NCBI RefSeq assembly: GCF_024502345.1
Contig: NZ_JALDNN010000001.1
DNA length: 64,000 nucleotides
From: Escherichia coli
GTDB taxonomy: Bacteria > Pseudomonadota > Gammaproteobacteria > Enterobacterales > Enterobacteriaceae
Direction: 5' to 3' (one strand)
Translations under genes and position numbers: made by a program
Part shown: positions 8,820-55,991 of the stretch, piece by piece
Layout: every line of letters starts with the position of its first letter
How positions within the stretch are numbered: position 1 is the stretch's first letter
Notes under the pieces: model-generated
Told to the model about the DNA's origin: nothing
Databases searched by the model: none
Seen by the model: the letters and a program-made list of their open reading frames with translations, nothing else

Positions 8820-9120
8820 ATTATTGCCGGATGCGGCATAAACGCCTTATCCGGCCTACACATGCGTCCCCGTAGGTCGGATAAGACGCGCCAGCGTCGC
8901 ATCCGACATTTTGGGCACAGTAGCTGTATGTGACATGAACGCATTATGTGACCAACACATGCGCTCCCCGTAGGTCGGATAAGACGCGTCAGCGTCGCAT
9001 CCGACATTTTGGGCACAGTAGCTGTATGTGACATGAACGCATTATGTGACCAACACATGCGCTCCCCCGTAGGTCGGATAAGACGCGCCAGCGTCGCATC
9101 CGACATTTTAGGCACAGTAG
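8820..9120. repeat. REP-containing tandem repeat array (about 98-bp unit, about 3 copies)
   Basis: The unit GTAGGTCGGATAAGACGCG...CGCATCCGACATTTTGGGCACAGTAGCTGTATGTGACATGAACGCATTATGTGACCAACACATGCGCTCCCC recurs starting at 8872, 8970 and 9069. Confidence 0.8.
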
Positions 9121-9125
9121 CCCAC

Positions 9126-25699: not shown

Positions 25700-25792
25700 G
25701 GTGAGGTGGCCGAGAGGCTGAAGGCGCTCCCCTGCTAAGGGAGTATGCGGTCAAAAGCTGCATCCGGGGTTCGAATCCCCGCCTCACCGCCA
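25700..25792 (+). tRNA. serV: tRNA-Ser (anticodon GCU)
   Basis: 93-nt cloverleaf GGTGAGGTGGCCGAGAGG...CGCCTCACCGCCA with long variable arm and anticodon loop CCTGCTAAG. Confidence 0.9.
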
Positions 25793-25795
25793 TTT

Positions 25796-25872
25796 GCATC
25801 CGTAGCTCAGCTGGATAGAGTACTCGGCTACGAACCGAGCGGTCGGAGGTTCGAATCCTCCCGGATGCACCA
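25796..25872 (+). tRNA. argV: tRNA-Arg (anticodon ACG)
   Basis: 77-nt GCATCCGTAGCTCAGCTGGATAGAGTACTCGGCTACGAACCGAGCGGTCGGAGGTTCGAATCCTCCCGGATGCACCA. Confidence 0.9.
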
Positions 25873-26007
25873 TATTCTCCGTAACCTTCAGCGATGAAGG
25901 TATGGAAGAGGTGGCGGTACTAACCGCAGGCACCAGGGAGAATAACGTTGCTTTAGCAACGGCCCGAAGGGCGAGCCGCAAGGCGAGTAATCCTCCCGGA
26001 TGCACCA
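25873..26007 (+). repeat. Structured spacer element ending in a tRNA-Arg 3-prime-end mimic (copy 1)
   Basis: 135-nt unit starting TATTCTCCG with four short hairpins and ending GAGTAATCCTCCCGGATGCACCA, duplicating the 3-prime terminus of the upstream tRNA-Arg. Confidence 0.7.
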
Positions 26008-26071
26008 TCTCTTACTTGATACGGCTTTAGTAGCGGTATCAAAAAATCTGCAGTAAAGTAAGTTTCCCGAT

Positions 26072-26148
26072 GCATCCGTAGCTCAGCTGGATAGAGTACT
26101 CGGCTACGAACCGAGCGGTCGGAGGTTCGAATCCTCCCGGATGCACCA
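26072..26148 (+). tRNA. argY: tRNA-Arg (anticodon ACG)
   Basis: Identical 77-nt tRNA-Arg sequence, second copy. Confidence 0.9.
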
Positions 26149-26210
26149 TCTCTTACTTGATATGGCTTTAGTAGCGGTATCAATATCAGCAGTAAAATAA
26201 ATTTCCCGAT

Positions 26211-26287
26211 GCATCCGTAGCTCAGCTGGATAGAGTACTCGGCTACGAACCGAGCGGTCGGAGGTTCGAATCCTCCCGGATGCACCA
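26211..26287 (+). tRNA. argZ: tRNA-Arg (anticodon ACG)
   Basis: Identical 77-nt tRNA-Arg sequence, third copy. Confidence 0.9.
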
Positions 26288-26422
26288 TATTCTCCGAAAT
26301 CTTCAGCAATGAAGATATCGAAGAGGTAGCGGAATTAACCGCAGGCACCAGGGAGGATAACGTTGCGCCAGCAACGGCCCGAAGGGCGAGCCGCAAGGCG
26401 AGTAATCCTCCCGGATGCACCA
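26288..26422 (+). repeat. Structured spacer element ending in a tRNA-Arg 3-prime-end mimic (copy 2)
   Basis: Same 135-nt unit after argZ with a few substitutions. Confidence 0.7.
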
Positions 26423-26485
26423 TCTCTTACTTGATATGGCTTTAGTAGCGATATCAATATCAGCAGTAAAATAAATTTTCCCGAT

Positions 26486-26562
26486 GCATCCGTAGCTCAG
26501 CTGGATAGAGTACTCGGCTACGAACCGAGCGGTCGGAGGTTCGAATCCTCCCGGATGCACCA
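26486..26562 (+). tRNA. argQ: tRNA-Arg (anticodon ACG)
   Basis: Identical 77-nt tRNA-Arg sequence, fourth copy. Confidence 0.9.
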
Positions 26563-26695
26563 TATTCTCCGAAATCTTCAGCAATGAAGATATCGAAGAG
26601 GTAGCGGAATTAACCGCAGGCACCAGGAAGGATAACGTTGCTTTAGCAACGGCCCGAAGGGCGAACGCCAGTGAGTCATCCTCCCGGATGCACCA
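26563..26695 (+). repeat. Structured spacer element ending in a tRNA-Arg 3-prime-end mimic (copy 3)
   Basis: Same unit after argQ; ends GTGAGTCATCCTCCCGGATGCACCA although no tRNA follows. Confidence 0.7.
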
Positions 26696-26842
26696 TCTTC
26701 TCCAAAAAATTTCCTTCAAAAATATCTCATTTTTAAATAACTACTTTATCCATTTCCTGAATTTTCTTCTCCTTCGCCATCAGCGACAAAATCAAGCAAT
26801 TACGCTAAAGTAGCGTCATATTTTTCGACTTGCGAGAAGACC

Positions 26843-29471: not shown

Positions 29472-29544
29472 AAAAAGGCCACTCGTGAGTGGCCAAAATT
29501 TCATCTCTGAATTCAGGGATGATGATAACAAATGCGCGTCTTTC
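29472..29544 (-). ncRNA. micA: Hfq-dependent sRNA MicA (SraD)
   Basis: Reverse complement reads GAAAGACGCGCATTTGTTATCATCATCCCTGAATTCAGAGATGAAATTTTGGCCACTCACGAGTGGCCTTTTT, matching MicA as I recall it, with its terminator hairpin. Confidence 0.9.
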
Positions 29545-36129: not shown

Positions 36130-36225
36130 TGTGGTTTGTAGGCATGATAAGACGCGCCAGCGTCGCATCAGGCATTGTGTACAGAGCGGCGGATGCGGCG
36201 AAAACGCCTTATCCGCCCGAATAAA
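36130..36225. repeat. REP palindromic element
   Basis: TGTAGGCATGATAAGACGCGCCAGCGTCGCATCAGGCA...GGCGGATGCGGCGAAAACGCCTTATCCGCC between ygaY and proX. Confidence 0.7.
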
Positions 36226-49367: not shown

Positions 49368-50030
49368 TTAATTGCCAGCCATCGCCTGCTGGATAATGGG
49401 AATTGGCGTCAGTAAATGCTGGCGCATTAACTCACTGGCGCGCGCGGTATCTCGCGCCAGTACCGCCGCAGTCAGGGTCTGGTGCTGATCGTGTTTATCC
49501 TCCAGCATTTCCACCGAAAGCACCGTTCGCCGCAGCCAGATAAATCGATAGCGCGCCGCCAGATCAAACAACCGTTCACGCATTTGCAGCAAATAGTGAG
49601 AACCACAGCCCGCCACAATTGCTGTATGAAACGCCTGATGACGCAGATCCCACTCATCAAGCATTTTCTCGCTGGCGTCACAGGCTTCCAGCTTACTGAG
49701 CAGATGCGCTTTTGCGAGAACGTCTGCCTCCCATTCATCGCCACCGCGGGCAATCGCCAGACTGACCAGCATCGCTTCCATATTGGCGCGGGCGTCGAAA
49801 ATATCGAGCAGCTCCTGCTCTGACATAGACGCCACCCGATACCCTTTTTGATTCACCACCGTGACCAGCCGTTCCGCCACCAGTTGAGAAAGTGCTTCCC
49901 GCAACGGCCCAACGCCAAGTGCATAACGCGATGTCAGCAAACTCATCCGTAATTTTTCATCCGGTTGAAAATTACCGCGAATAATATCGTTCTTCAGCCA
50001 GCGATAGCCATCCAGAGACGTAATGGTCAT
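49368..50030 (-). CDS. csiR: GntR-family regulator CsiR
   Basis: ORF 49368-50048; start tentatively at MTITSLDGYRWL. Confidence 0.8.
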   Translation of the reverse strand: MTITSLDGYRWLKNDIIRGNFQPDEKLRMSLLTSRYALGVGPLREALSQLVAERLVTVVNQKGYRVASMSEQELLDIFDARANMEAMLVSLAIARGGDEWEADVLAKAHLLSKLEACDASEKMLDEWDLRHQAFHTAIVAGCGSHYLLQMRERLFDLAARYRFIWLRRTVLSVEMLEDKHDQHQTLTAAVLARDTARASELMRQHLLTPIPIIQQAMAGN

Positions 50031-50050
50031 GGTGTGACTCCTGATCATTA

Positions 50051-51451
50051 TCAGCGCGTATTATGAACGGGTGTTTTTTGCCACAATACCAGCTTTTTCC
50101 AGCGAGCCATAATTGGCACGGTACAGATAATCCCTATCGCTAATAAGCCGGTGGAGATCACTTCTAACTGTTGCGCCGGACGGAATAGCATCACTACCAA
50201 CACAAAGGTAATAAAGCCGATGACCAGCCAGGTGAGCCAAGGATAAAGCCACATTCGCAAGCGAATTTCGCTTCCTTCTGCTCGCAGAATTTTGCGCATC
50301 CGCAACTGTGAAACGGCGATGACTAAATAAACCAGCAGGGCGATAGCGCCGGAGCTGTCGATCAGAAATTTAAATACCTTCGCAGGCGCGTAATAGTTCA
50401 CCACCACCGTTAAGAATGCCGCGCCGGTGGAGAGTAACACCGCCACGTACGGGGTTTTACTGCGGTTGATTTTACCCATTACCGCAGGCGCATCTCCGCG
50501 ACGGCTTAAGGAGTAGAGCATCCTGGAAGCGGTATACAGAGCCGAGTTCAGGCAACTGGTTACGGAAAGTAATATCACGCAGTCCATGATCAATTTCGCA
50601 TGGGGAATATTGAGCAATTCCAGTACCGAGCGATAAGAACCGACGGCTTTTAGTCCGGGCATATTCCACGGAATTAATGCCACGACGACAAAAATAGAAC
50701 ATAAATAGAAGATAGAAATACGCCAGATAACCGAGTTGGTGGCGCGGACAATATGTTTTTCCGGCGTGTCGGATTCCGCGGCGGCAATGGTGACAATTTC
50801 TGCGCCCATAAACGAGAACATGGTGATCAACATCGCGCTTAATACCGCACCGAAGCCGTTGGGCATAAAGCCGCCGCTATCCCACAATCTTGAGATCCCG
50901 CTCACGTCGGCATACGGGTAAAAACCGCTAATTGCGACTGCACCAAGGAAAATAAAGGCCAGGATAGCGATGACTTTGCACAGCGCCAGCCAGAACTCAA
51001 ATTCGCCGTAGTTTTTAACGCTTAATAAATTACTGCCAGTTAAGGCAAGGGTAATGACGAGGGAAAATAACCAGATGGGAATGCCTGGAACCCACGAGTG
51101 CAGGATCATGGCGGCGATGTTGGCTTCCAGCGGGATAACCAGTACCCAAAACCACCAGTACAACCAGCCGATGGTATAACCCGCCCAACGACCAATAGCT
51201 TTATCGGCATAGGTGGAAAACGAACCGGTATCGGGCGTGGCAACCGCCATTTCCGCCAACATCCGCATAATCATAACCACCAGTAGCCCGGCGAACAGAT
51301 AGGCCAGTAATACCGCCGGGCCCGCTTCGGCGATGGCGACGCTGGAACCGACAAACAGACTTGCGCCGATAACACCGGCAATAGACAACATGGTGACGTG
51401 GCGTGATTTCAGCCCGCCGCCTAACTCATGTGGTTGCGATGATTGCCCCAT
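50051..51451 (-). CDS. gabP: GABA permease GabP (APC family)
   Basis: ORF 50051-51514; start set at MGQSSQPHELGGGLKSRHVTM; 466 aa. Confidence 0.9.
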   Translation of the reverse strand: MGQSSQPHELGGGLKSRHVTMLSIAGVIGASLFVGSSVAIAEAGPAVLLAYLFAGLLVVMIMRMLAEMAVATPDTGSFSTYADKAIGRWAGYTIGWLYWWFWVLVIPLEANIAAMILHSWVPGIPIWLFSLVITLALTGSNLLSVKNYGEFEFWLALCKVIAILAFIFLGAVAISGFYPYADVSGISRLWDSGGFMPNGFGAVLSAMLITMFSFMGAEIVTIAAAESDTPEKHIVRATNSVIWRISIFYLCSIFVVVALIPWNMPGLKAVGSYRSVLELLNIPHAKLIMDCVILLSVTSCLNSALYTASRMLYSLSRRGDAPAVMGKINRSKTPYVAVLLSTGAAFLTVVVNYYAPAKVFKFLIDSSGAIALLVYLVIAVSQLRMRKILRAEGSEIRLRMWLYPWLTWLVIGFITFVLVVMLFRPAQQLEVISTGLLAIGIICTVPIMARWKKLVLWQKTPVHNTR

Positions 51452-51539
51452 CCTGAATCCTCTCGAAAGTGTGTCACTTGGGAGAGCGCCCCGACATTTC
51501 CCGCGTCGGGTCACGCGTTTAATTGTTATTGATTCTTTT

Positions 51540-51950
51540 TGCCGGAGAGCGGCTCCGCCTTATCCGGCCGACATAGATTTATTCCTGTTCACGTACAGAT
51601 TGTCGGATGCGGCGTAAACGCCTTATCCGACCTGGATCCCCGTAGGCCGGACAAGACGCGCAGCGTCGCCTCCGGCATGGGTGCGCCGATTGTCGGATGC
51701 GGCGCAAACGCCTTATCCGACCTACATTTCCGTAGGCCGGACAAGACGCGTAAGCGTCGCCTCCGGCATGGTGCGCCGAATGTCGGATGCGGCGTTAACG
51801 CCTTATCCAACCTACACTCTCGTAGGCCGGACAAGACGCGCAGCGTCGCCTCCGGCATGGTGCGCCGATTGTCGGATGCGGCGTTAACGCCTTATCCGAC
51901 CTACACTCTCGTAGGCCGGACAAGACGCGCAGCGTCGCCTCCGGCATGGG
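51540..51950. repeat. REP/BIME tandem cluster (about 5 units) between gabT and gabP
   Basis: Repeated TGTCGGATGCGGCG(T/C)AAACGCCTTATCCGACCTAC...CGTAGGCCGGACAAGACGCGCAGCGTCGCCTCCGGCATGG units. Confidence 0.8.
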
Positions 51951-51957
51951 GGCGGTG

Positions 51958-53238
51958 CTACTGCTTCGCCTCAGCAAAACACTGGCCGATGATCTCCAGA
52001 CCCTGACGGATCTGAGCGTCTTCAATGGTGAGCGGTACAAGGATGCGCAGCACGTTGTAATACGGGCCGCAGGAGAGAAGAATCAGGCCCTTATCGCGGG
52101 CGCGCGCCACGATCTCGGCGGTGAGTTTTGCGTCCGGTTTGCTGTGATCGCCATCTTCAAACAGCTCGATGGCGATCATCGCCCCCAGACCGCGTACGTC
52201 GCCGATCTCCGTGTGTTTTTCGGCGATCGCCAGCAATCCGTCTTTCAGCTTCTGCCCCAGATCGTTGGCTTTCTGCAGCAGATTTTCCTGCTCGAACACC
52301 TTCAACACTTCCAGCGCCGCCACGCAGGCAATCGGATTACCGGCATAGGTGCCGCCCAGCCCGCCTGGAGCGACGGCATCCATCACTTCCGCGCGCCCGG
52401 TGACGCCCGCCAGCGGGAAACCGCCTGCGATCGATTTCGCAAACGTGGTGAGATCCGGCGCCACGCCCATTTGCTCCATCGCAAACAGCGTGCCGGTACG
52501 CCCTGCGCCGCTCTGCACTTCATCGGCAATCAGCATGATCCCGTGCTCGTCACACAGCGTGCGTAAACGCTGCATAAAAGCAGGCGTCGCGGCGTAGAAA
52601 CCGCCTTCGCCCTGAACCGGCTCAATCACGATGGCGGCGATATCTTCCGGCGCAGCGTCATTTTTAAAAATTCGGTGAATGCTAGCGATAGCGTCATCTT
52701 CACTGATGCCGTGCAGCGGGCAAGGATAAAGCGCGCGATAAACGTGCCCAGGCATCAGCCCCATGCCCGCAGAGTACGGATTCACCTTGCCGGTCAGCGC
52801 CAGCGTGTAATGCGTGCGCCCGTGGTACGCGCCGCTAAAGGCGATAGTTCCGCTACGTTTGGTGGCGGCGCGGGCGATTTTCACCGCGTTTTCCACCGCT
52901 TCGGAACCGGTCGTAACCAGCAGCGTTTTCTTGGCGAAATCGCCTGGCACCTTCTGATTCATAATCTCGCACAGCTCCAGATACGGCTCGTAGGCCAGCA
53001 CCTGGAAGCAGGTGTGCGACAGTTTTTTCAACTGCGCTTCCACTGCCGCAACCACTTTCGGATGCAGGTGCCCGGTATTGAGCACCGCAATGCCGCCCGC
53101 GAAATCAAGATACTCACGGCCTTCAACGTCCCACACCCGGCAGTTTTCCGCGCGATCAGCGAAAATGGGGTGAATTTGCCCAACGCCACGAGGAATTGCC
53201 TGACTGCGGCGCTGCATTAACTCTTTATTGCTGCTCAT
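51958..53238 (-). CDS. gabT: 4-aminobutyrate aminotransferase GabT
   Basis: 426-aa PLP class III aminotransferase ORF. Confidence 0.9.
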   Translation of the reverse strand: MSSNKELMQRRSQAIPRGVGQIHPIFADRAENCRVWDVEGREYLDFAGGIAVLNTGHLHPKVVAAVEAQLKKLSHTCFQVLAYEPYLELCEIMNQKVPGDFAKKTLLVTTGSEAVENAVKIARAATKRSGTIAFSGAYHGRTHYTLALTGKVNPYSAGMGLMPGHVYRALYPCPLHGISEDDAIASIHRIFKNDAAPEDIAAIVIEPVQGEGGFYAATPAFMQRLRTLCDEHGIMLIADEVQSGAGRTGTLFAMEQMGVAPDLTTFAKSIAGGFPLAGVTGRAEVMDAVAPGGLGGTYAGNPIACVAALEVLKVFEQENLLQKANDLGQKLKDGLLAIAEKHTEIGDVRGLGAMIAIELFEDGDHSKPDAKLTAEIVARARDKGLILLSCGPYYNVLRILVPLTIEDAQIRQGLEIIGQCFAEAKQ

Positions 53239-53251
53239 TCGCGTTCTCCAG

Positions 53252-54700
53252 TTAAAGACCGATGCACATATATTTGATTTCTAAGTAATCTTCGATGCCA
53301 TACTTCGAACCTTCACGACCCAGACCCGAGGCTTTAATGCCGCCGAACGGGGCCACTTCATTGGAAATAATCCCGGTATTGATGCCGACGATGCCGTACT
53401 CCAGCGCCTCGCCCACGCGGAAGACGCGACTTAAATCACGGGCATAGAAATAGGCGGCAAGGCCAAACTCGGTGTCATTGGCTTGCGCGATCACATCGGC
53501 TTCATCTTTAAAACGGAACAGCGGGGCGAGGGGGCCGAAGGTCTCTTCTTTCGACACTTTGGCGTTGGCCGGCACGTCCACCAGAATGGTGGGCTGGAAG
53601 AAGTTACCGCCGCGTTCGTGTGCTTTACCACCGCAAACCACGCGTGCGCCTTTCTCCAGCGCATCGGCAATATGCTCTTCTACTTTTGCTACTGCTTTTT
53701 CATCAATCAGCGGCCCGATAGTGACGCCTTTCTCCAGCCCGTCACCGATGTGCAGTTTGCTCACCGCCTGCTGCAATTTTTCGGCAAAGCGGTCATACAC
53801 GCCGTCCTGCACGTATAAACGGTTGGCGCAGACGCAGGTTTGCCCGGCGTTGCGGAATTTCGAGGCCAGTGCGCCTTCCACGGCTTTATCGAGATCGGCA
53901 TCGTCAAAGACGATAAACGGCGCGTTGCCGCCCAGCTCCAGCGACACTTTTTTGATGTCTTTCGCGCACTGTTCCATTAACTGGCGGCCAATTCCGGTCG
54001 AACCGGTAAACGACAGCTTGCGCACCAGCGGATTGCTGGTCAGTTCGTTACCCACCGCGCCCGCCGAACCGGTGACCACGTTAAATACACCAGCCGGAAT
54101 GCCCGCGCGGATCGCCAGTTCTGCCAGCGCCAGCGCAGAGAACGGCGTCTGACTGGCGGGCTTCAGCACCATCGTGCAGCCTGCCGCCAGCGCCGGACCG
54201 GCTTTGCGGGTAATCATCGCCGCCGGGAAGTTCCACGGCGTGATAGCCGCGGTGACGCCAATCGGCTGCTTGATAACAATCAGGCGTTTATCGGCCTGAT
54301 GACCGGGAATGGTGTCGCCATAAATACGTTTGCCTTCTTCGGCAAACCACTCAATAAAGGAGGCGGCGTAGCTGATTTCGCCTTTCGCTTCTGCCAGTGG
54401 TTTGCCCTGTTCGAGGGTCATCAGGCGCGCTAAATCGTCCTGATGCTCCATCATCAAATTGAACCAGTTGCGCAGAATGTTGGCGCGTTCTTTGGCGGTG
54501 AGCGCACGCCAGGCGGGCAGGGCGCGGTTGGCGGCGTCGATAGCAGCGCGGGTTTCATCAGCGCCCATTTTGGGTACGCTACCCAGCTTGTCGCCGTTCG
54601 CCGGATTGGTGACGTCGATGACCTCGCCATTGTTGGCGTCCAGCCATTCCCCGTTAATCAACGCCTGCTGGCGGAATAAGTTACTGTCGTTAAGTTTCAT
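53252..54700 (-). CDS. gabD: Succinate-semialdehyde dehydrogenase GabD
   Basis: 482-aa aldehyde dehydrogenase ORF. Confidence 0.9.
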   Translation of the reverse strand: MKLNDSNLFRQQALINGEWLDANNGEVIDVTNPANGDKLGSVPKMGADETRAAIDAANRALPAWRALTAKERANILRNWFNLMMEHQDDLARLMTLEQGKPLAEAKGEISYAASFIEWFAEEGKRIYGDTIPGHQADKRLIVIKQPIGVTAAITPWNFPAAMITRKAGPALAAGCTMVLKPASQTPFSALALAELAIRAGIPAGVFNVVTGSAGAVGNELTSNPLVRKLSFTGSTGIGRQLMEQCAKDIKKVSLELGGNAPFIVFDDADLDKAVEGALASKFRNAGQTCVCANRLYVQDGVYDRFAEKLQQAVSKLHIGDGLEKGVTIGPLIDEKAVAKVEEHIADALEKGARVVCGGKAHERGGNFFQPTILVDVPANAKVSKEETFGPLAPLFRFKDEADVIAQANDTEFGLAAYFYARDLSRVFRVGEALEYGIVGINTGIISNEVAPFGGIKASGLGREGSKYGIEDYLEIKYMCIGL

Positions 54701-54722: not shown

Positions 54723-55991
54723 TTATTGATTAAATGCGGCGTGTAAGGCATCCACACTACGTGCCGCTCGCAGCGTGCGTCCGGGGTTACTCTGGCTTGC
54801 CAACAGCGTTTGTACCTTGCTGACAATATGCGCACCAATAGGAATTGCTGATGTCGCTGCCGGGGAGGGCGCATTGCAGGTGTGGATCGTGCGCGGGGTG
54901 GTGACAAACAGAAAATCGTCAATCAGCTTGCCGTCCGGCGATACCGCCTGCGCCCGCACACCGGCGGGCCAGGGCTGGAGATCGCTTAACGAAAGCCGGG
55001 GACAATACTTTTGCACCAGCCGCAGATAGCCGCTTTTGCACAGCGAGTTTTTCATCTCGCCCAGTCCTGAGCGTAGATGGTTTTGCAGCACCCGGCGAAT
55101 CCCCGACGAGCCCAAAATCTCCAGCGTGTCGCTAAATGAGAAGTCGCGCTTGCGATAGCCTTCGCGTTTGAACGCCAGCACTGCGTTTGGCCCAACGGTG
55201 ACGCTACCGTCGATCATGCGGGTGAGATGAACGCCTAAAAACGGCATTGCCGGGTCGGGGATGGGGTAAATCAGGTGGTTAACAATCTGGTTATGCTCCG
55301 GCGCCAGGCGGAAATACTCGCCACGGAACGGGCAGATAATAAAGCCCGGTTCGAGGCCGAGCATTTTCACCAGCCGGTCAGCCATCAGCCCGGAACAGCT
55401 AATCAGCGTTGACGCTTCGTATTCGCCACCCTGATGGGTACGTATCACCACGCCGTTTTTATGCTCACTAAGGCCGCTGACTTCGGCGTTATAGATAATC
55501 TCGCCGCCTCTGGCCTGGAAGATTTTTGCCATCGCCGCCGTGACTTCGCGGTAGCTGACAATGCCGCTGGACGGCACAAAAATACCGCCAAGCCCGGTGA
55601 TATTCGGTTCGCGCTCGCGCAGTTCATCGGCGTTTAACCACTCGCGCTCGATACCGTTCGCGGCCGTGCGTTCCCATAAGGCGCGCATCCGTTCCATTTC
55701 GAGTTCAGACGTGGCGACCAGCATCTTGCCGCAGTTGTCGTAGCGAATGCCGTTTTGATCGCAAAAGGCTTTGGTGGCGCGGTTTCCCGCCAGGCAAAAC
55801 TGCGCCTTCAGACTGCCGGGCGTGTAATAAACCCCGGCATGGATCACGCCGCTGTTGTGGCCCGTCTGGTGACAGGCCGGGCCGGACTCTTTTTCCAGCA
55901 ACGCAATGCGGGCATCCGGGTAGACATCAATCAGTTGCATGGCGGTCGACATGCCGATGATGCCACCGCCAATAATCACAAAATCATACAT
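54723..55991 (-). CDS. lhgO: L-2-hydroxyglutarate oxidase/dehydrogenase LhgO (YgaF)
   Basis: 422-aa FAD-dependent ORF with N-terminal GGGIIG dinucleotide motif. Confidence 0.85.
   Translation of the reverse strand: MYDFVIIGGGIIGMSTAMQLIDVYPDARIALLEKESGPACHQTGHNSGVIHAGVYYTPGSLKAQFCLAGNRATKAFCDQNGIRYDNCGKMLVATSELEMERMRALWERTAANGIEREWLNADELREREPNITGLGGIFVPSSGIVSYREVTAAMAKIFQARGGEIIYNAEVSGLSEHKNGVVIRTHQGGEYEASTLISCSGLMADRLVKMLGLEPGFIICPFRGEYFRLAPEHNQIVNHLIYPIPDPAMPFLGVHLTRMIDGSVTVGPNAVLAFKREGYRKRDFSFSDTLEILGSSGIRRVLQNHLRSGLGEMKNSLCKSGYLRLVQKYCPRLSLSDLQPWPAGVRAQAVSPDGKLIDDFLFVTTPRTIHTCNAPSPAATSAIPIGAHIVSKVQTLLASQSNPGRTLRAARSVDALHAAFNQ

Follow-up and report, generated by a model that had tools for sequence, protein, structure and literature searches.

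A four-unit BIME-2 array between gabT and gabP in Escherichia coli is an expanded allele of the K-12 element

The repeat array between gabT and gabP in this E. coli genome is a BIME-2 and represents an expanded form of the K-12 allele, which has one unit there. Nine REP palindromes lie within positions 51539-51949 of the window (the whole stretch of DNA analysed, 64 kb): eight are arranged in four tandem units, and one is a lone degenerate REP. This kind of element, its variability among strains and its intercistronic effects are already well described, and the four-unit array is of an ordinary kind, with a copy number that is rare. Taken as a whole, the reading that we find reasonably probable is of an expanded allele whose hairpins would form a barrier in gab mRNA, by analogy with REPs elsewhere, and whose copy number is close to neutral.

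Locus and operon context

The 901 bases around the array were 100% identical to strains FDAARGOS_943 and FDAARGOS_944, and the PGAP annotation used here is that of a genome 100% identical over the 901 bases compared. The flanks of the array were matched in 5425 of 5426 complete E. coli genomes. According to the ORF list, NCBIfam and PGAP, five genes are co-oriented on the minus strand in operon order: lhgO, gabD, gabT, gabP and csiR (Table 1). All five had NCBIfam equivalog scores far over the cut-offs, in agreement with PGAP; gabT, for example, scored 910 bits against NF005985, for which the cut-off is 713. The segment lhgO-gabD-gabT-gabP is the distal part of csiD-lhgO-gabDTP, described as a five-gene operon for K-12 (PMC6265302). 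The NCBIfam and PGAP assignments of the flanking genes agree with a preliminary description of this DNA, which had placed a repeat cluster inside the gab operon, separating gabT from gabP.

The gabT-gabP spacer covers 51452-51957 on the minus strand, a length of 506 bp. A 487-aa gabP ORF starting from GTG 51514 was rejected as an over-extension: the NF007566 alignment begins at its residue 22, and the true start is ATG 51451 (PGAP).

Table 1. Coordinates of the genes, repeats and leader features at the gab locus, in mRNA order.
Feature	Position	Strand	Evidence
lhgO	54723-55991	-	NCBIfam equivalog, PGAP
gabD	53252-54700	-	NCBIfam equivalog, PGAP
gabT (4-aminobutyrate transaminase), upstream gene	51958-53238	-	NCBIfam NF005985 equivalog, PGAP CDS
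gabT stop codon TAG	51960-51958	-	
12-nt gap CACCGCCCCCAT, gabT stop to first REP stem	51946-51957	-	sequence
Tandem BIME-2 array, four 89-91 bp units	51598-51949	-	Tandem Repeats Finder, REP parsing
REP 1, z2-type iREP GCCGGAGGCGACGCTGCGCGTCTTGTCCGGCCTAC	51911-51945	-	RNA hairpin, -20.3 kcal/mol
REP 2, y-type REP, GTAG intact	51871-51904	-	hairpin, -17.4 kcal/mol
naRNA4 (Rfam RF02564) match, head-to-head y-l-z2 pair, end to end	51825-51901	-	71.8 bits
REP 3, z2-type iREP	51822-51856	-	hairpin, -20.3 kcal/mol
REP 4, y-type REP, GTAGGTTGG variant	51782-51815	-	hairpin, -15.3 kcal/mol
naRNA4 (RF02564) match	51735-51812	-	71.6 bits
REP 5, z2-type iREP, 4-nt loop (CTTACG)	51732-51767	-	hairpin, -21.5 kcal/mol
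REP 6, y-type REP	51692-51725	-	hairpin, -17.4 kcal/mol
naRNA4 (RF02564) match	51645-51722	-	67.4 bits
REP 7, z2-type iREP	51642-51676	-	hairpin, -20.3 kcal/mol
REP 8, y-type REP, GTAG changed to CCAG	51602-51635	-	hairpin, -17.4 kcal/mol
AU-rich 29-nt linker AATCTGTACGTGAACAGGAATAAATCTAT, predicted unstructured	51573-51601	-	sequence; unpaired in per-hairpin folding
REP 9, solitary degenerate y-like REP GTCGGCCGGATAAGGCGGAGCCGCTCTCCGGC	51539-51572	-	hairpin, -16.3 kcal/mol
155-aa ORF	51539-52006	+	ORF list
89-aa ORF	51589-51858	-	ORF list
gabP leader, single-copy, outside repeat	51452-51527	-	alignment, pair counts, covariance model
Leader P1 hairpin, 8 bp	51488-51512	-	
Leader P2/P3 hairpin	51460-51486	-	3' arm is the Shine-Dalgarno GAGAGG
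Shine-Dalgarno GAGAGG	51459-51464	-	
gabP (GABA permease), downstream gene	50051-51451	-	NCBIfam NF007566, PGAP CDS, 466 aa
csiR	49368-50048	-	NCBIfam equivalog, PGAP

Anatomy of the array

REP/BIME repeats had been described previously at this position, and Tandem Repeats Finder, a half-site scan and RNA folding all found them there. Tandem Repeats Finder reported a single array with a period of 90, 3.9 copies, 92% matches and a score of 588. A repeat search gave four 89-nt copies with palindromic arms, spaced by 90, 90 and 89 nt. The REP half-site pattern GTAGGYCGGAYAAGRCG, allowing up to two mismatches, had 15 matches in the 64-kb window compared to 0.08 expected from shuffled sequence. These matches occupy four separate places, with nine of the 15 falling within 51556-51927; at the gab spacer, the place checked for overlap, the copies overlapped no CDS. 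The spacer folded in the mRNA sense to -270 kcal/mol, compared to -206 ± 6 kcal/mol for shuffled sequence (z = -10).

In mRNA order each unit consists of a z2-type iREP (sequence GCCGGAGGCGACGCTGCGCGTCTTGTCCGGCCTAC), a 6-nt tail-to-tail linker, a y-type REP (sequence GTAGGTCGGATAAGGCGTTAACGCCGCATCCGAC) and a 14-15-nt head-to-head linker. The preliminary description had counted about five units: the tandem REP array stands, and the count becomes four complete units with one solitary degenerate REP. Units 1 and 2 are 98% identical, suggesting a recent duplication; unit 3 is about 90% identical to these two, and unit 4 about 84%. REP 7 and REP 8 together make up the unit common to K-12. An AU-rich linker separates REP 8 from REP 9, and we infer that it is a candidate endonuclease entry site. 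Downstream of REP 9 come a second AU-rich stretch, the 76-nt leader and the gabP ATG. Two points were absent from the preliminary description: the 12-nt spacing between the gabT stop codon and the first hairpin, and a conserved leader hairpin upstream of gabP.

A scan for internal sigma-70 promoters found no promoter-like site in the array. A search for intrinsic terminators gave only one terminator-like stem, on the plus strand in the gabP leader, no more than expected by chance.

Identification as BIME-2

A REP is defined as an imperfect palindrome of about 35 nt, preceded by GTAG and with an AA/GC mismatch bulge in its stem (PMC3333891, PMC8266576). At the gab locus GTAG or its complement CTAC was present in seven of the nine copies, the exceptions being REP 8 (CCAG) and REP 9 (GTCG). 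All nine copies folded as stem-bulge-stem-loop, with energies from -15 to -21.5 kcal/mol. REPs are also high-copy, dispersed and extragenic; the 15 motif matches per 64 kb and the position of the locus between two CDSs agree with this.

BIME-2 elements combine inversely oriented y and z2 REPs with short linkers in tandem copies, well conserved within a locus, and have no long IHF-binding linker, unlike BIME-1; variation in tandem BIME number among strains is a described general property (PMC3333891). In the gab array, Z(iREP) and Y(REP) alternated strictly, four times. Alignment to the y-l-z2 covariance model from REP325 ran end to end at 67-72 bits, with REP325 serving as the reference for our y/z2 typing. 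The gab linkers measure 6 nt tail-to-tail and 14-15 nt head-to-head, and the latter resembles the 'l' of REP325. The copies within the array are well conserved (92% matches), and unit number differed among strains, from one to four in BIME-bearing E. coli and up to about 16 elsewhere. The IHF consensus WATCAANNNNTTR was absent from the gabT-gabP spacer. BIME-1 with IHF binding was ruled out as a classification: the spacer has neither an IHF consensus nor a long L linker.

The closest known counterpart is at the same site in K-12 MG1655. The K-12 gab BIME shares with the window its flanks, the 12-nt offset, the degenerate ninth REP and the gabP leader. Its unit, a z2 iREP and a y REP with a GGGGAT linker, the y REP being mutated to CCAG, also recurs in the window. 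K-12 has one unit in a 237-bp spacer, compared with four in the 506-bp spacer of the window; the additional three are on the gabT side and have GTAG intact.

REP325 of K-12, located between yjdM and yjdN, is likewise a tandem y/z2 array between co-oriented genes, in the mRNA sense. Its plan (y, 13 nt, z2, 17 nt) is that of the gab array, and the head-to-head linkers are related (AACGGTGCCGACT versus AATCGGCGCACCAT in the REP325/gab comparison). The two arrays differ in size and in detail: the six units of REP325 are 100 bp long and joined tail to tail by a 17-nt 'U' motif, while the four gab units are 90 bp long with a 6-nt linker. The y arms are GCCGGAT in REP325 and GTCGGAT in gab. The z2 arms are GCCTGATG...TTATCAGGC in REP325 and GCCGGAGG...TTGTCCGGC in gab; the z2 copies differ at 4-5 positions, one compensated pair included.

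Copy number in E. coli and related species

Copy number was surveyed in 5,426 complete E. coli genomes, in which the alleles fell at discrete lengths. Multi-unit alleles were counted from the best 60 of the 5,426 records and from an even sample of 60. One unit was found in the large majority of records. Four units were present in at least seven records, two of them identical to the window; three units in about 26 of the best 60; two units in at least five; and 1.5 units, in which the last y REP is fused to the ninth REP, in at least 16. In the even sample of 60 only the top record was multi-unit, corresponding to a frequency of about 1-3% at most. With relatives included, the allelic series of the gab spacer comprises 0, 0.5, 1, 1.5, 2, 3, 4 and about 16 units. 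The linkers of four-unit alleles follow the order a-a-b-c in the window and in L007 but c-c-b-a in L006, and four-unit alleles have therefore arisen or rearranged more than once.

REPs were missing from the gabT-gabP spacer of 1304 genomes (24%), and the BIME is thus dispensable in nature. Some Citrobacter, Pluralibacter and Shimwellia have REP-less spacers similar to the one in these E. coli genomes. The E. coli version also contains a hairpin-rich, MITE-like insertion of about 190 bp, whose ends are imperfect terminal inverted repeats; inside it are a terminator-like stem and a long palindrome (CCCTCTCCC/GGGAGAGGG). The REP-less allele still bears a long hairpin of another kind as well as this stem. 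Where a BIME was present, the spacing from the gabT stop to the first REP was 11-13 nt in all alleles examined.

A DNA-pattern scan of species-representative genomes found 37 loci with adjacent gabT and gabP. The ancestral spacer was likely about 120-160 nt long. Several Citrobacter species have a single y-like REP that matches REP 9 of E. coli in position and sequence, suggesting that REP 9 is old. Other REP pairs occupy the spacers of Salmonella arizonae and C. koseri, and no palindromic element was found in those of some Citrobacter, Pluralibacter, Shimwellia and Hafnia. Units of the z2-y type were present in E. albertii (two), E. whittamii (one) and Escherichia sp. E1V33 (three). In Escherichia sp. 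MOD1-EC7003, a member of a cryptic clade, 15.7 units of 95 bp fill a 1.6-kb spacer, and four units are therefore not the maximum. Palindromic elements have thus repeatedly settled and expanded in the gabT-gabP spacer.

These results bear on the main alternative, that the array is purely selfish or neutral: a permissive site at which size changes through RAYT or recombination, with no meaningful effect on gab. We regard this as possible, if on the doubtful side. It is consistent with the independent colonisation of the spacer by different palindromic elements, namely those of Citrobacter, Salmonella arizonae, C. koseri and Escherichia and the MITE-like insertion, and with a copy number that ranges from 0 to about 16 while multi-unit alleles are rare. 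The added units also retain the GTAG required by TnpA-REP (PMC3333891), whereas the old K-12-type y REP has CCAG. The persistence of the element argues the other way: about 76% of E. coli genomes, as well as E. albertii and E. whittamii, retain one unit or more, and the offset from the gabT stop is about 12 nt in every case. Judging from other REPs, nine stable transcribed hairpins would also be hard for exonucleases and ribosomes to ignore. For the extra units, the neutral alternative overlaps with the reading that we favour.

Predicted effects on gab expression

The favoured reading, an expanded BIME-2 with a hairpin barrier, draws on several described effects of REPs. In malEFG, an intercistronic REP structure halts PNPase and RNase II after an endonucleolytic cut, and the upstream cistron outlives the downstream one (PMC5927463). 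Trimming back to stable stem-loops, REPs among them, is described for Rho-terminated transcripts in PMC6061677, which also cites Espeli et al. 2001 for a link between BIMEs and Rho-dependent attenuation. As summarised in PMC12306157, a REP at most 15 nt downstream of a stop codon is reported to hold up ribosomes at termination and to reduce the output of the gene before it (Liang et al. 2015).

The gab array resembles malE-malF in that stable mRNA-sense hairpins lie between co-transcribed cistrons, directly 3' of the upstream one, where they could stop 3'-5' exonucleases. AU-rich single-stranded stretches flank the hairpins, an arrangement that fits an exonuclease-barrier design. The stabilisation of malE is experimentally proven, while its gabT counterpart is predicted by analogy. 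The mal case also has a clear stoichiometric rationale, the abundant product being a periplasmic binding protein; none is established for GabT versus GabP. For stop-proximal REPs, exemplified by nrdAB (Liang, Rudd and Deutscher 2015, as summarised in PMC12306157), the limit is 15 nt, and the first gab stem stands 12 nt from the gabT stop.

By these analogies, the nine hairpins in csiD-lhgO-gabDTP mRNA would stall PNPase and RNase II arriving from the 3' side. Once an endonuclease has cut gabP or the AU-rich linkers, or Rho has terminated transcription, the gabT-proximal RNA would outlive the gabP segment. The first hairpin may in turn hinder ribosome termination at gabT and lower the yield of GabT, and 506 nt of untranslated, structured RNA should weaken transcription-translation coupling into gabP. 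The composition of the gab spacer showed no clear C-over-G bias that would mark a Rho loading site, and no obvious C-rich, G-poor tract. Stabilisation of gabT mRNA and impeded GabT termination act in opposite directions, and the net effect on GabT:GabP is therefore not predictable. REP-mediated duplication or recombination, driven by the RAYT transposase or by unequal exchange, is the most likely origin of the three extra units. They probably contribute little beyond the effect of one unit, with copy number approximately neutral and not tuned.

The preliminary description had proposed that the cluster may set the GabT:GabP ratio and had suggested comparing copy number among strains. Such a role is plausible, malE-malF and BIME attenuation being a fair analogy. 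The comparison upheld variability in unit number and weakened the case for tuning, which is doubtful given that alleles span 0 to about 16 units, that the expanded ones are few and differ from one another, and that 24% of genomes are REP-less. The searchable text of Dar and Sorek 2018 (both papers), Adams 2021 and Sutormin 2019, supplements included, yielded no gabT or gabP expression values, half-lives or 3' ends; the gab operon is silent in exponential-phase data sets. The gab alleles, with their near-identical flanks, form a natural series for the dosage of REP hairpins in mRNA protection, Rho polarity and stop-proximal stalling.

Possible roles in DNA topology and nucleoid structure

A different explanation places the function in the DNA: the array would act as a strong gyrase site independent of transcription, or form a cruciform, and would relieve or insulate supercoiling in the strongly induced gab operon, with more units providing more sites. 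We consider this unlikely. In composition (y/z2, with four y REPs) and in its tandem arrangement the array is like the BIME-2 elements known as strong gyrase sites (Espeli and Boccard 1997; Sutormin et al. 2019). Gyrase cleavage is enriched in BIME-2 elements, chiefly at their y REPs, and its signal becomes stronger once transcription is blocked (PMC6379681). Cleavage affects only some BIME-2 elements, however, and the gab locus was not found in the searchable supplement text of PMC6379681. The gab y and z2 REPs are also sequence variants, the y arms being GTCGGAT and not the canonical GCCGGAT. The REP-less allele is common, moreover, and no phenotype has been tied to gyrase binding at gab.

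Much less probable still is that the array serves as a source of naRNA4-like RNAs, with three y-l-z2 units processed from the sigma-S-dependent gab transcript and helping HU to compact the nucleoid in stationary phase. In the mRNA sense, three matches to Rfam naRNA4 (RF02564) exceeded the gathering score of 59.5 bits, while the best match at the one-unit K-12 gab locus was 40 bits, under that score. REP325, from which naRNA4 derives, is arranged in the same way between co-oriented genes, and two hairpins are reported as a requirement for HU-dependent condensation (PMC4550694). The Rfam model, however, matched other BIMEs equally well: an unrelated BIME at 36141-36218 in the window scored 73.5 bits, higher than any gab match, and the model is therefore a generic BIME detector that reports sequence and not function. 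The gab matches were accordingly downgraded as proof of a specific sRNA gene. REP325 is the only array for which binding by HU and effects on the nucleoid have been demonstrated (PMC4550694), and an allele carried by just 0.1-0.7% or so of E. coli genomes is not a core nucleoid component.

We give equally little credence to a combined proposal, in which copy number would be a heritable, fast-mutating dial on the gabT:gabP mRNA ratio and on sigma-S-controlled naRNA4-like RNAs for HU-dependent compaction in stationary phase. Every unit gained would alter the mRNA ratio, and every new head-to-head junction would yield one more naRNA4-like two-hairpin RNA. If it were true, strains with 4-16 units would differ physiologically from one-unit and REP-less strains.

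Open reading frames across the repeats

The ORF list contains a 155-aa and an 89-aa ORF across the repeats, and the chance that these are real proteins is negligible: their translations are periodic over 30 residues, a consequence of the repeat period of about 90 nt; Pfam gave no match at or near its curated cut-offs (best E values 0.01-0.08, under gathering); PGAP places no CDS across the repeats in the genome identical here; and the ORFs are shortened or gone in one-unit and REP-less alleles. The 155-aa ORF also extends antisense into gabT. A coding reading of these two ORFs and of the 68-aa and 81-aa ORFs was rejected, and the earlier view of the 155-aa and 89-aa ORFs as artefacts of the repeats holds.

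A conserved leader hairpin upstream of gabP

The more useful by-product of the analysis was the invariant leader of gabP, a candidate translational control element for the GABA permease. The 76-nt leader was at least 95% identical in 5396 of the 5426 E. coli genomes, with one copy in each whatever the upstream allele, and it is also conserved in Citrobacter, Pluralibacter, Shimwellia and Hafnia. Compensatory double changes were seen at four pairs of the P1 hairpin, and its G-U pairs were sensible on the mRNA strand only. In the leader alignment 96.6% of cells were paired, compared to at most 60% when the partners were slid. The covariation score was 0.181 compared to 0.114 for shuffled alignments, and none of 500 shuffles reached 0.181.

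In the structural model, the second leader hairpin appears to sequester the gabP Shine-Dalgarno sequence. The leader is a better candidate than the BIME for setting GabP translation, and it may dominate GabP output whatever the BIME does. Rfam had no match to the gabP leader. A covariance model built from the leader alignment matched only upstream of gabP in the Enterobacterales gab loci examined.

gabP start codon and leader

A gabP GTG start at 51514, which yields the 487-aa frame in the ORF list, was rejected; family alignment and the PGAP annotation both place the start at ATG 51451, giving a protein of 466 aa. The spurious extension (51452-51514) overlaps a structured, single-copy and conserved leader directly upstream of gabP.

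Hairpin P1 of the leader has covarying pairs: covariation was seen in four of its eight pairs across Escherichia, Citrobacter, Pluralibacter, Shimwellia and Hafnia. The second hairpin appears to sequester the gabP Shine-Dalgarno sequence. The leader gave no match in Rfam. A leader element of ~65 nt was absent from S. enterica arizonae and diarizonae, C. koseri, C. amalonaticus and C. portucalensis, and in these species CAATAACAATAA was directly joined to the Shine-Dalgarno sequence. The leader may represent a previously undescribed element controlling translation of the GABA permease.

Location of features at gabT-gabP (L numbers denote loci from other genomes, in their own coordinates)
Feature	Location	Strand	Remarks
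Structured gabP leader	51452-51527	minus	
Leader hairpin P1	51488-51512	minus	
Leader second hairpin	51460-51486	minus	
Ninth REP	51539-51572		compared with spacers L010, L021, L024, L047, L071
REP-less allele	L003 453-762		E. coli PS1Thumoskin9; likewise L039, L029
Largest BIME allele	L118 1229-2718		Escherichia sp. MOD1-EC7003
'1.5-unit' allele	L127 253-518		E. coli Ecol_316

Alleles of the gabT-gabP spacer

The single REP of several Citrobacter species matched the degenerate ninth REP in both position and sequence (GGCGGAGCCGC loop), so the ninth REP is older than the Escherichia-specific z2-y units. Tandem units at this site reached 15.7 copies of 95 bp each in MOD1-EC7003, where the spacer, the largest allele seen, measures 1.6 kb. 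The '1.5-unit' allele was found in Ecol_316 and at least 15 further genomes. It has lost the AU-rich linker, and its ninth REP is fused with the y REP that belongs to the last unit; this allele looks like the product of REP-REP recombination.

Of 5426 E. coli genomes, 1304 (24%) had an alternative spacer without REPs. This allele consists of an AT-rich, ancestral-looking spacer with an insertion of ~190 bp, which ends in imperfect terminal inverted repeats (GAGGCGATCGACAAAGTTAAAAA ... TTTTAAGATTTTGTTGACCGCCTC) and contains a long palindrome (CCCTCTCCC/GGGAGAGGG) as well as a terminator-like stem. The 45-70-nt core occurs in a few dispersed copies per genome.

Other repeats and RNA genes in the window

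A second tandem BIME at 8837-9121 (2.9 copies of a 98-bp unit, 94% matches) carries z-type REPs with GTCGGAT arms; comparison with the FDAARGOS_943 annotation placed it in the hypF-norW region. A head-to-head REP pair at 36138-36221 scored 73.5 bits with the naRNA4 model of Rfam, exceeding the gab units, and in the same annotation an IS3-family element adjoins its position.

A tRNA cluster at 25700-26707, within tandem repeats of 133-275 bp, comprises one probable tRNA-Ser and four tRNAs with identical scores, which are tRNA-Arg according to the FDAARGOS_943 annotation. That annotation lists only three tRNA-Arg genes at this location; the two sequences are therefore not collinear throughout, despite 100% identity at the gab spacer. 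The sRNA MicA lies at 29473-29544.
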